A stretch of 64,000 nucleotides of DNA from a virus (Duplodnaviria > Heunggongvirae > Uroviricota > Caudoviricetes): IMG/VR virus record IMGVR_UViG_2778260994_000001. One strand, given 5' to 3'. This document shows, piece after piece, positions 35,252 through 48,203 of this stretch (its first letter is position 1; every line of letters begins with the position of its first letter). Position numbers and translations under genes: made by a program. The notes beneath the pieces were generated by a model. The model was not told where the DNA came from. It made no database searches and was given only the letters and a program-made list of their open reading frames with translations.

Positions 35252-35268
35252 ATATTTATTAGAGCAAT
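35252..35268 (-). promoter_or_regulatory. C1-operator-like 17-mer (ATTGCTCTAATAAATAT, 16/17)
   Basis: Minus-strand match at the head of the uhr-like/hrdC/dmt gene string. Confidence 0.5.
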
Positions 35269-39189: not shown

Positions 39190-40395
39190 ATGACTTCGAT
39201 GAGTGATTCCAGCCAGCTTCACAAGGTTGCTCAAAGAGCAAACAGAATGCTCAATGTTCTGACTGAACAAGTACAGTTGCAAAAGGATGAGCTACACGCG
39301 AACGAGTTTTACCAGGTCTATGCGAAAGCGGCACTGGCAAAATTGCCTCTACTGACTCGAGCGAACGTTGACTATGCCGTAAGTGAAATGGAAGAAAAGG
39401 GTTATGTTTTCGATAAACGCCCTGCTGGCTCTTCAATGAAATATGCGATGTCAATTCAGAACATCATTGACATATATGAACATCGCGGAGTGCCAAAATA
39501 CCGGGATCGCTACAGCGAAGCGTATGTGATTTTCATCTCCAATCTTAAAGGCGGTGTGTCAAAAACTGTATCGACGGTTTCTCTGGCGCATGCAATGCGT
39601 GCTCACCCTCATCTTCTGATGGAAGATTTAAGGATTCTGGTTATTGACCTTGATCCGCAATCTTCAGCAACGATGTTTTTAAGCCATAAACACTCTATTG
39701 GTATCGTAAACGCAACATCTGCACAGGCTATGTTGCAGAATGTAAGCCGTGAAGAGCTGTTAGAGGAGTTTATTGTTCCTTCTGTTGTACCTGGGGTTGA
39801 CGTTATGCCTGCGTCGATTGACGATGCCTTTATTGCATCCGATTGGAGAGAGCTGTGCAATGAGCATCTACCGGGTCAGAACATCCATGCAGTCCTGAAA
39901 GAAAATGTGATTGATAAGCTGAAGAGCGATTATGACTTTATCCTCGTTGATAGTGGTCCTCACCTTGACGCCTTCCTGAAAAATGCTTTGGCCTCGGCCA
40001 ATATACTGTTTACACCTCTGCCGCCTGCAACGGTTGATTTCCACTCATCGCTTAAATACGTTGCCCGCCTTCCTGAGTTGGTGAAACTCATTTCGGATGA
40101 AGGCTGCGAGTGCCAGCTTGCGACTAACATTGGTTTTATGTCCAAGTTGAGTAACAAGGCAGACCATAAGTATTGCCATAGCCTGGCTAAAGAAGTGTTC
40201 GGTGGGGATATGCTTGATGTCGTCCTCCCTCGCCTTGACGGTTTTGAACGCTGCGGCGAGTCTTTTGACACTGTTATTTCAGCTAACCCGGCAACGTATG
40301 TTGGTAGTGCTGATGCATTGAAGAACGCGCGAATTGCCGCGGAAGATTTTGCTAAAGCAGTTTTTGACCGTATTGAATTTATCAGATCTAACTGA
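39190..40395 (+). CDS. parA: Partition ATPase ParA (type Ia, with N-terminal DNA-binding extension)
   Basis: Deviant Walker A KGGVSKT; 401 aa; followed by parB and parS. Confidence 0.9.
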   Translation: MTSMSDSSQLHKVAQRANRMLNVLTEQVQLQKDELHANEFYQVYAKAALAKLPLLTRANVDYAVSEMEEKGYVFDKRPAGSSMKYAMSIQNIIDIYEHRGVPKYRDRYSEAYVIFISNLKGGVSKTVSTVSLAHAMRAHPHLLMEDLRILVIDLDPQSSATMFLSHKHSIGIVNATSAQAMLQNVSREELLEEFIVPSVVPGVDVMPASIDDAFIASDWRELCNEHLPGQNIHAVLKENVIDKLKSDYDFILVDSGPHLDAFLKNALASANILFTPLPPATVDFHSSLKYVARLPELVKLISDEGCECQLATNIGFMSKLSNKADHKYCHSLAKEVFGGDMLDVVLPRLDGFERCGESFDTVISANPATYVGSADALKNARIAAEDFAKAVFDRIEFIRSN

Positions 40396-40411: not shown

Positions 40412-41413
40412 ATGTCAAAGAAAAACAGACCAACAATTGGGCGAACCCTTAATCCTTCAATATTAAGCGGATTTGATAGTTCTTCAGCCTCTGGCGATCG
40501 AGTCGAGCAGGTATTCAAGTTATCAACTGGTCGCCAGGCCACATTTATTGAAGAGGTAATACCTCCGAACCAGGTAGAAAGCGATACCTTTGTTGATCAG
40601 CATAACAACGGGCGTGACCAGGCATCTCTTACGCCAAAATCATTAAAAAGTATCCGAAGCACTATTAAGCATCAGCAATTTTACCCTGCAATAGGTGTCA
40701 GACGGGCTACAGGGAAAATTGAAATTTTGGATGGTTCCCGGCGTCGAGCTTCTGCCATCTTAGAGAACGTAGGGTTGCGGGTTTTAGTCACGGACCAGGA
40801 GATCAGCGTTCAGGAAGCGCAAAATTTAGCGAAAGACGTTCAGACAGCATTGCAGCACAGCATTCGAGAAATAGGTCTGCGTTTGATGCGAATGAAAAAT
40901 GATGGGATGAGTCAGAAGGATATTGCAGCCAAAGAAGGGCTGTCTCAGGCGAAGGTCACGCGTGCTCTCCAGGCAGCGAGCGCTCCGGAAGAATTAGTCG
41001 CCCTTTTCCCTGTGCAGTCGGAATTAACCTTTTCGGACTACAAAACGCTTTGTGCTGTTGGCGACGAAATGGGGAACAAGAATTTAGAGTTTGATCAGCT
41101 TATTCAAAACATATCCCCGGAAATAAACGACATCTTATCCATTGAAGAAATGGCCGAAGATGAAGTTAAAAATAAAATCCTGCGCTTGATAACAAAGGAA
41201 GCCTCACTACTCACGGATAAAGGTTCTAAAGATAAGTCCGTAGTTACTGAATTATGGAAATTTGAGGACAAGGATCGCTTTGCAAGGAAGCGCGTGAAAG
41301 GCCGTGCATTTTCTTATGAGTTTAATCGACTCTCAAAAGAGATACAGGAAGAACTCGACAGGATGATTGGGCATATCCTTAGAAAGAGCCTCGATAAAAA
41401 GCCGAAGCCTTAA
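40412..41413 (+). CDS. parB: Partition protein ParB (centromere-binding)
   Basis: 333 aa ORF immediately downstream of parA and upstream of the parS-like site. Confidence 0.85.
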   Translation: MSKKNRPTIGRTLNPSILSGFDSSSASGDRVEQVFKLSTGRQATFIEEVIPPNQVESDTFVDQHNNGRDQASLTPKSLKSIRSTIKHQQFYPAIGVRRATGKIEILDGSRRRASAILENVGLRVLVTDQEISVQEAQNLAKDVQTALQHSIREIGLRLMRMKNDGMSQKDIAAKEGLSQAKVTRALQAASAPEELVALFPVQSELTFSDYKTLCAVGDEMGNKNLEFDQLIQNISPEINDILSIEEMAEDEVKNKILRLITKEASLLTDKGSKDKSVVTELWKFEDKDRFARKRVKGRAFSYEFNRLSKEIQEELDRMIGHILRKSLDKKPKP

Positions 41414-41510
41414 ACTTTCGCCATTCAAATTTCACTATTAACTGACTGTTTTTAAAGTAAATTGCTCTAAAATTTCAAGGTGAAATCGCCACGGTTTCAC
41501 CTTGGATTTT
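41414..41510. other. parS-like centromere: heptamer ATTTCAC and hexamer TCGCCA boxes around an AT-rich core
   Basis: TCGCCA at 41418 and 41485; ATTTCAC at 41428; inverted TGAAAT at 41481; TTTCAC at 41495. Confidence 0.7.
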
Positions 41511-41637
41511 ACCTTCCTCCCCTCCTCCCGAAAAAATAAAAAAATTGCTTGTCACGAGAAAGTCAACAAGTGACTTTCAATAAAATCTCTTCCGAAAAGG
41601 GATTCACACAAGTGCCTTGTGTTTAAGGAAGAGTAAA

Positions 41638-43344
41638 TTGAGTAACTTACGCGAATACCAGAATCGTATTGCAGATATCGCAAAACGCTCTAAAGCAGTG
41701 CTTGGCTGGGCAAGCACTGCGCAGTTCGGTACTGATAACCAATTCATTAAAGATGATGCCGCGCGTGCCGCATCTATCCTTGAAGCTGCACGTAAAGACC
41801 CGGTTTTTGCGGGTATCTCTGATAATGCCACCGCTCAAATCGCTACAGCGTGGGCAAGTGCACTGGCTGACTACGCCGCAGCACATAAATCTATGCCGCG
41901 TCCGGAAATTCTGGCCTCCTGCCACCAGACGCTGGAAAACTGCCTGATTGAGTCCACCCGCAATAGCATGGATGCCACTAATAAAGCGATGCTGGAATCC
42001 GTCGCAGCAGAGATGATGAGCGTTTCTGACGGTGTTATGCGTCTGCCTTTATTCCTCGCGATGATCCTGCCTGTTCAGTTGGGGGCAGCTACCGCTGATG
42101 CGTGTACCTTCATTCCGGTTACGCGTGACCAGTCCGACATCTATGAAGTCTTTAACGTGGCAGGTTCCTCTTTTGGTTCTTATGCTGCTGGTGATGTTCT
42201 GGACATGCAATCCGTCGGTGTGTACAGCCAGTTACGCCGCCGCTATGTGCTGGTGGCAAGCTCCGATGGCACCAGCAAAACCGCAACCTTCAAGATGGAA
42301 GACTTCGAAGGCCAGAATGTACCAATCCGAAAAGGTCGCACTAATATCTACGTTAACCGTATTAAGTCTGTTGTTGATAACGGTTCCGGCAGCCTACTTC
42401 ACTCGTTTACTAATGCTGCTGGTGAGCAAATCACTGTTACCTGCTCTCTGAACTACAACATTGGTCAGATTGCCCTGTCGTTCTCCAAAGCGCCGGATAA
42501 AGGCACTGAGATCGCAATTGAGACGGAAATCAATATTGAAGCCGCTCCTGAGCTGATCCCGCTGATCAACCACGAAATGAAGAAATACACCCTGTTCCCA
42601 AGCCAGTTCGTTATCGCGGCTGAGCACACGGTACAGGCGGCGTATGAAGCACAGCGTGAATTTGGTCTGGACCTGGGTTCCCTACAGTTCCGCACCCTGA
42701 AAGAATACCTGTCCCATGAACAGGATATGTTGCGTCTCCGCATCATGATCTGGCGTACTCTTGCGACCGACACCTTTGACATCGCTCTGCCGGTTAACCA
42801 GTCCTTTGATGTATGGGCAACCATCATTCGTGGCAAATTCCAGACTGTATATCGCGACATTATTGAGCGCGTTAAATCTTCTGGTGCGATGGGGATGTTT
42901 GCTGGTGCTGATGCAGCATCTTTCTTCAAACAGTTGCCGAAGGATTTCTTCCAGCCAGCCGAAGACTATATCCAGACTCCGTATGTTCACTACATCGGTA
43001 CCCTGTTCGGTAACGTGAAAGTGTACGAAGTACCTGCTGGTATTTGTAAGAACTTAACGACAGAGAACATTCAGTTCAGCTCGATGGATGTGCTGTGCTA
43101 CGTCCGTGATGAAAATCCGGGTAAAGCAGGCTTCGTGACTGGTGATGCTGTCCCGGCCATCCCGTTCCAGCATCCGACCACTCCGGCGCTGGTCAACCGT
43201 ACCACGCTGTGGGGTTCGGCTATCAACGATATGCACCCACGCAACGGCGCTGATTACTTCACTCGTGTAACGCTGACAATGGCCAAAAAAGGCGGGCTTA
43301 ACTTCATAAGCGGCGACACGATTGATGCCGGTGACTCTGAGTAA
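41638..43344 (+). CDS. Putative major capsid protein (TTG start after AAGGAAGAG RBS; ORF-track start 41617)
   Basis: Large ORF at head of the plus-strand structural operon, followed by sheath-like gene; assignment by position and size. Confidence 0.5.
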   Translation: MSNLREYQNRIADIAKRSKAVLGWASTAQFGTDNQFIKDDAARAASILEAARKDPVFAGISDNATAQIATAWASALADYAAAHKSMPRPEILASCHQTLENCLIESTRNSMDATNKAMLESVAAEMMSVSDGVMRLPLFLAMILPVQLGAATADACTFIPVTRDQSDIYEVFNVAGSSFGSYAAGDVLDMQSVGVYSQLRRRYVLVASSDGTSKTATFKMEDFEGQNVPIRKGRTNIYVNRIKSVVDNGSGSLLHSFTNAAGEQITVTCSLNYNIGQIALSFSKAPDKGTEIAIETEINIEAAPELIPLINHEMKKYTLFPSQFVIAAEHTVQAAYEAQREFGLDLGSLQFRTLKEYLSHEQDMLRLRIMIWRTLATDTFDIALPVNQSFDVWATIIRGKFQTVYRDIIERVKSSGAMGMFAGADAASFFKQLPKDFFQPAEDYIQTPYVHYIGTLFGNVKVYEVPAGICKNLTTENIQFSSMDVLCYVRDENPGKAGFVTGDAVPAIPFQHPTTPALVNRTTLWGSAINDMHPRNGADYFTRVTLTMAKKGGLNFISGDTIDAGDSE

Positions 43345-48153: not shown

Positions 48154-48203
48154 CTCCGACCTCAAACTGAAAACGCCAGGTGACTCCAGATTAGAGCAAT
48201 CTA

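Follow-up and report, generated by a model that had tools for sequence, protein, structure and literature searches.

The parS centromere of bacteriophage P1 (incB; P1par family) lies directly after parB and carries ParB boxes in two arms on either side of an IHF core. ParB binding needs only the boxes A2-A3-B2 (PMC10999674), and a passage of PMC2241845 that cites Hayes and Austin states that IHF bending is partly replaceable by correctly phased, intrinsically curved DNA. Since three boxes suffice for ParB and, as far as that passage goes, curvature can partly replace IHF, the sequence of the parS spacer does not appear to be critical. The P7-type parS has the same box/IHF/box architecture and a variable centre, but its box B is of the TTCCCA type and its centre, ACATTCATGAAAAATTT, is devoid of an operator-like core. 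Genes flanking P1 parS are reportedly silenced by ParB, through ParB spreading and not through C1, an effect said to have been described by Rodionov, Lobocka and Yarmolinsky in 1999.

The C1 operators of P1 and P7 follow an asymmetric 17-bp consensus, ATTGCTCTAATAAATTT (PMC8546580). They nearly all have T at position 11 and a right half in register with the left, they are conserved among relatives, and many overlap the -10 hexamer of a promoter. We analysed a stretch of viral DNA of 64,000 nucleotides (the window, by which we mean the whole of this stretch) in which parS contains the first ten positions of this consensus. At this site position 11 is A, only 12 of 17 positions agree and the score is 13.2 bits; it is neither conserved among relatives nor annotated in P1. 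In silencing by ParB it is the partition complex that affects transcription, and the window adds nothing to that effect.

A P1-type centromere directly after parB

The window carries a P1-type plasmid prophage, whose gene order between about 37.8 and 45 kb is repA, parA (39190-40395), parB and the major capsid gene, as read from the list of open reading frames. The stop codon of parB ends at 41413 and box B1 begins at 41418, the same position relative to parB as in P1. Over 211 bp around parS the window shares 98.6% of its bases with bacteriophage P1 and 99.1% with phage RCS47. Mapping of the P1 parS annotation (NC_005856; K02380) onto the window by gap-free alignment left two substitutions only. 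At 41464 and 41494 P1 has A and the window has G; the first of these changes creates the operator-like decamer, and the second is shared with P7. The order, spacing and sequence of B1, A1, A2, A3, B2 and of the IHF core are those of P1, including the essential A2-A3-B2 'small parS', and among the boxes only the first base of A4 differs. A first-pass annotation had assigned 41414-41510 to parS, and this assignment stands, with P1-type boxes and IHF core present at 41418-41500 (Table 1). The left arm is nearly invariant among 67 sequences (n = 67). From its near-identity to the experimentally characterised P1 site, the window parS can be expected to bind ParB and IHF and to confer partition and incB incompatibility.

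Table 1. Features of the parS region, in coordinates of the window
Feature	Position	Strand	Description	Source
parB	40412-41413	+	333 aa; final gene of the parAB operon, parS 3' of its stop codon	list of open reading frames
parS centromere, P1-type	41418-41500	+	box order B1-A1-IHF-A2-A3-B2-A4	alignment to annotated parS, NC_005856 and K02380
Left arm	41418-41435	+	B1 TCGCCA 41418-41423; A1 ATTTCAC 41429-41435	P1 annotation
IHF consensus core	41439-41451	-	+ strand TAACTGACTGTTT; bottom strand AAACAGTCAGTTA; 2 mismatches to WATCAANNNNTTR	P1 annotation, consensus scan
Predicted -35 of 'P2 23'	41446-41451	+	CTGTTT	NC_005856 annotation
Decamer	41461-41470	+	ATTGCTCTAA; C1 operator consensus positions 1-10	exact match
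Operator-sized 17-bp frame	41461-41477	+	ATTGCTCTAAAATTTCA; 12/17 match, 13.2 bits; overlaps 6 bp of box A2
Hypervariable spacer trinucleotide	41463-41465		TGC in the window, TAC in P1, CCA in most relatives
-10 hexamer of predicted sigma-70 promoter 'P2 23'	41468-41473	+	TAAAAT	transferred from NC_005856
Right arm	41472-41500	+	A2 ATTTCAA 41472-41478; A3 GTGAAAT 41480-41486; B2 TCGCCA 41486-41491; A4 GTTTCAC 41494-41500	P1 annotation, alignment
Right-arm palindrome, boxes A2-A3-B2-A4	41474-41506	+	terminator-like RNA hairpin followed by UUUU	terminator scan

An operator-like decamer in the parS spacer

The decamer ATTGCTCTAA had been noticed in the first-pass annotation, which quoted the centre of parS as AAATTGCTCTAAAATTT and placed the operator core in its first ten bases. 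The match is real, but the quoted sequence spans 41459-41475 and the decamer occupies its bases 3 to 12. The comparison with P1 parS proposed at the same time gives the same centromere, in which P1 reads ATTACTCTAA in place of the decamer. P1 (reference), K02380 and RCS47 all have this reading, so that the perfect decamer results from a single A-to-G change at 41464 relative to P1.

It had been suggested, as a fallback, that the decamer is just the IHF-binding core typical of P1 parS. An ordinary parS centre is indeed what we found, but the decamer lies outside the IHF consensus core, and it is not typical of P1, which has A where the window has G. A consensus scan with WATCAANNNNTTR, allowing up to 3 mismatches, gave no match over 41461-41470; the best matches, with 2 mismatches each, lie at 41436-41448 and 41439-41451, the latter being the annotated core. 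Judged by its sequence, the decamer belongs to the AT-rich spacer that separates box A2 from the IHF core, and not to that core. The trinucleotide 41463-41465 is located 12-14 bp, and the decamer 10-19 bp, 5' of the W of the IHF consensus, a placement that we take to correspond to the flanking arm which carries an A-tract in the H' site of lambda, as reported for the complex with IHF by Rice et al. 1996. The spacer bases around the trinucleotide, AAAT and TCTAAAATTT, are invariant and AT-rich.

Candidate operators were scored with a weight matrix derived from the C1 operators in the NC_005856 annotation (20 half-sites). The window has 10 sequences with at most 3 mismatches to ATTGCTCTAATAAATTT (0.29 expected), and the parS site is not among them. 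The ten operator-grade sites of the window score 18.7-28.0 bits; the parS 17-mer, ATTGCTCTAAAATTTCA, ranks right behind them as the 11th-highest of 127,968 window positions, 5.5 bits under the weakest. Among the annotated P1 operators, 18 of 20 reach at least 17.8 bits, a value that belongs to Orlf (ATTGCTCTAATTATAAC), an operator with a poor right half. The weakest stand-alone annotated operator, Oc1c (ATTGCTCTAACGCTTTA), scores 14.55 bits. Since the homologue of Oppp in the window scores 13.1 bits, a value of about 13 bits, next to that of Oc1c, falls in a twilight zone and is not clearly negative.

The right half of the parS site is where it departs from the operators. At position 11, annotated operators have T (19/20) or C (1/20) and never A, which is the base found in parS. 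The CTAAT core is accordingly incomplete, TAA being present at positions 8-10 and T11 replaced by A. The parS centre corresponds to the consensus minus 'TA' (positions 11-12), which moves its right half by 2 bp. We considered whether a gapped alignment, with this TA deletion, could be taken as a sign of function and rejected it, since the near-invariant T11 is lost and the right half moved. In the full NC_005856 annotation, with its 20 operator half-sites, P1 parS carries no C1 operator. A full-text search of the available literature returned nothing relevant to a link between C1 and parS. The proposed coupling of partition to immunity through C1 bound at parS is not supported: T is missing at position 11, the right half is out of register, the score falls short of that of the operator-grade sites, and P1 has no annotated operator here.

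A site of this quality is also to be expected by chance. Sites scoring at least 13.18 bits are expected 0.76 times per 64-kb window by exact calculation and 0.89 times in dinucleotide-preserving shuffles, 62% of which (n = 200) contained at least one. The bare decamer occurs 8 times in the window (0.23 expected), and all copies except that in parS are at positions homologous to annotated P1 operators. A single stray decamer per 64 kb is unremarkable. An excess of two 'extra' decamers over chance, in parS and at 48191-48200, was considered and discarded, the latter being the homologue of the annotated operator Orlf. The parS decamer overlaps the -10 hexamer of 'P2 23', a promoter that the P1 annotation gives as predicted only, and a consensus promoter scan called no promoter on the + strand at this place.

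Variation of the spacer and readings of the decamer

Two independent samples of relatives were compared, the first consisting of 65 loci that match a DNA pattern with four free bases, the second of 66 IMG/VR loci picked by ParB protein similarity alone (96-100% identity). Both show ParB boxes that are invariant or nearly so and a highly variable trinucleotide at 41463-41465. We could thus discard the idea that this variability is an artefact of selection with a fixed DNA pattern, as the sample chosen by ParB similarity only gave the same result. Fourteen alleles are found among 65 loci (CCA 28, CAC 7, CAA 6, TAC 6, CCC 5 and smaller classes), with TGC occurring once. The entropies at 41463, 41464 and 41465 are 1.11, 1.35 and 1.25 bits, the highest three-column mean among 6,906 columns (±3.6 kb); the mean entropy of third codon positions in parA and parB is 0.062 bits. 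A neighbour-joining tree was computed for the parA-parB-capsid region (5.8 kb); on it, parsimony requires 13, 16 and 19 steps at the three positions, against 0.32 for the mean column. Of its 5,820 columns, 41465 is the most homoplasic and 41464 the next. Alleles of the trinucleotide differ even among loci whose 2-kb flanks are otherwise identical.

A second variable patch coincides with the NNNN of the IHF core (41442-41445), where entropies reach 0.99 bits and the parsimony steps are 6, 10, 12 and 2. In the P7-type family (34 loci and P7) the boxes do not vary, and between A1 and A2 everything but the IHF consensus bases is variable; the trinucleotide homologous to 41463-41465 has entropies of 1.1-1.3 bits. 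Both patches of the P1-type parS change faster than all else in the par region, including the synonymous sites of the almost invariant neighbouring par genes. This could be due to a lack of constraint, to a mutational hotspot in IHF-bent DNA, or to diversifying selection. The fast-changing trinucleotide and IHF NNNN may be of interest to partition specialists.

The trinucleotide corresponds to operator positions 3-5, which in real operators are T (19/20), G (18/20) and C (19/20). The decamer is present in one of the 66 P1-type relatives and in none of the 32 P7-type relatives. When the highest operator score is taken for each parS, P1-type sites have a median of 1.0 bit; for P7-type sites the median is 0.1 bit, and the best of the 32 has 7.7 bits. 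A single relative attains 13 bits. As a control, the true operator Odmt (35252-35268 in the window) was found in 58 of these relatives, with 54 identical copies and the remaining ones varying solely at the naturally degenerate position 6. That relatives without the decamer nonetheless conserve Odmt, and that the most variable trinucleotide falls on operator positions 3-5, further weakens the proposed coupling of immunity and partition through parS.

The G allele was traced with exact-seed 46-mers able to seed only across the variable base. It occurs in 20 PLSDB plasmids, most of them from E. fergusonii, and in 6 complete genomes of E. coli, whereas the P1 allele (A) was found in 19 genomes and 20 PLSDB plasmids. 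A 61-mer search detected this parS in 528 PLSDB plasmids, of which about 20 (about 4%) carry the G allele. Ten plasmids of E. fergusonii share the 61-bp right half of parS with the window letter for letter, both substitutions included. Over 8 kb, no plasmid in PLSDB matches the window completely, the closest having 99.1% identity.

The decamer is almost certainly a coincidence, since it arises from one changed base just where the centromere spacer varies most. We give a probability of nearly nine in ten to its being a chance allele of an unconstrained spacer in an ordinary P1-type parS, in keeping with the parS anatomy, the allele distribution, the non-conservation and the sub-operator score. 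ParB would bind the heptamer (A) and hexamer (B) boxes of both arms, and IHF at 41439-41451 would bend the DNA so that the arms are bridged by ParB. The segment 41452-41471 would then act as an AT-rich spacer whose length and bendability count and whose exact sequence does not, leaving it a probably purely structural role. Its fixed bases, AT...TCTAA, supply 7 of the 10 bases of the operator core, and the free bases at 41463-41465 drift fast among P1-like plasmids, TGC being one transition away from the TAC of P1. In this lineage, TGC would complete by chance the 10-bp match to the left half of a C1 operator. The decamer would thus be neither a functional C1 operator nor a device coupling partition to immunity, and C1 probably has no useful binding at it in vivo.

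The decamer might instead be part of the surface recognised by IHF, the A-to-G change tuning IHF affinity or the geometry of the bend. The trinucleotide does sit where the A-tract arm of H' would lie, between invariant AT-rich bases. However, its 14 alleles, among them the GC-rich CCC and GCC, occur in plasmids with identical ParB and boxes, which indicates that no particular sequence is required at 41463-41465; moreover, no IHF consensus match covers the decamer, the annotated core being at 41439-41451. We regard such tuning as very improbable.

The main rival reading, with a similarly low probability, is a lineage-specific weak C1 site at 41461-41477 in plasmids with the G allele, where C1, aided by Lxc, would compete with IHF and ParB at A2 or repress a cryptic promoter within parS. 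The left half matches perfectly, and it is there that operators are most conserved; with 13.2 bits the site comes near Oc1c and the Oppp homologue, and annotated operators with poor right halves, such as Orlf and Oc1c, exist. The frame overlaps 6 bp of box A2 as well as the predicted -10 of 'P2 23', which is the usual place of an operator. The co-repressor Lxc is reported to strengthen binding of C1 to its operators (PMC8546580). Nor is the G allele a singleton: it has been kept in a clade of plasmids from E. fergusonii and E. coli, and is present in 6 complete E. coli genomes and about 20 plasmids of PLSDB. Against this, the A at position 11 is absent from all 20 operators, the right half stands 2 bp out of place, and chance alone would give about one equally good site per window. 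The allele is rare (1/66 relatives, about 4% of PLSDB parS sites) and affects the fastest-changing bases of the locus, P1 and P7 lack the decamer, and 'P2 23' is a prediction that fails a standard consensus scan. In addition, parS is expected to be occupied by a high-affinity complex of IHF and ParB. If C1 did bind, it might tie the immunity state to partition or to leaky transcription of the capsid gene.

Least probable of all is that the A-to-G change created, in the TGC sub-lineage (mostly E. fergusonii), a weak Lxc-assisted C1 site overlapping A2 and the cryptic -10, by which the repressor would compete with IHF and ParB or silence transcription internal to parS as a newly evolved link between immunity and partition.

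Were C1 to bind inside parS, the centromere would join immunity to plasmid inheritance, and this would be a regulatory principle new to phage-plasmids. Our results speak against such a C1-wired centromere and for the match being a by-product of free drift in the spacer. The parS site, its boxes, the IHF site and the C1 operators were known already; what is new here is a chance resemblance in one allele. It calls for caution with half-site matches to an asymmetric operator, which are to be expected by chance in AT-rich architectural DNA.

Minor features of the right arm and of other operators

At 41494, the first base of box A4, the window has G (GTTTCAC) and P1 has A (ATTTCAC). The window is alone in this among the 67 sequences selected by ParB, and the same G is found in ten E. 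fergusonii PLSDB plasmids and in P7. The right-arm palindrome folds as RNA with -20.9 kcal/mol (z = -7.0), and this arm may also serve to terminate transcription of the parAB operon. The G at 41494 turns a U-A pair of the hairpin into U-G, changing the fold from -21.5 kcal/mol (P1 allele) to -20.9 kcal/mol. An Rfam search of 41000-42000 gave as its sole match a sub-threshold snoRNA outside parS. The A-run 3' of parS (41532-41545, GAAAAAATAAAAAAATTG) has one A fewer than that of P1, and its length is polymorphic among relatives.

Two further operator positions of the window differ from P1. The homologue of Orlf (formerly Op55), on the - strand at 48184-48200 directly after repL, retains ATTGCTCTAAT; homology to P1 stops exactly after position 11 and the DNA downstream differs, which points to a mosaic junction inside the operator that left only its left half. 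The homologue of Oppp at 20273-20289 (+) reads TATGTACTAATTAATTT (13.1 bits) where P1 has CATGCACTAATTAATTT (20.4 bits), so that a genuine operator position has decayed in this plasmid to the score of the parS look-alike. In the P1 record itself, Omat (NC_005856.1, 2628-2645) is annotated as 18 bp on the minus strand; CATGCACTAATAAATAT reads on the plus strand at 2628-2644, and the annotation looks like a strand slip in the public record.
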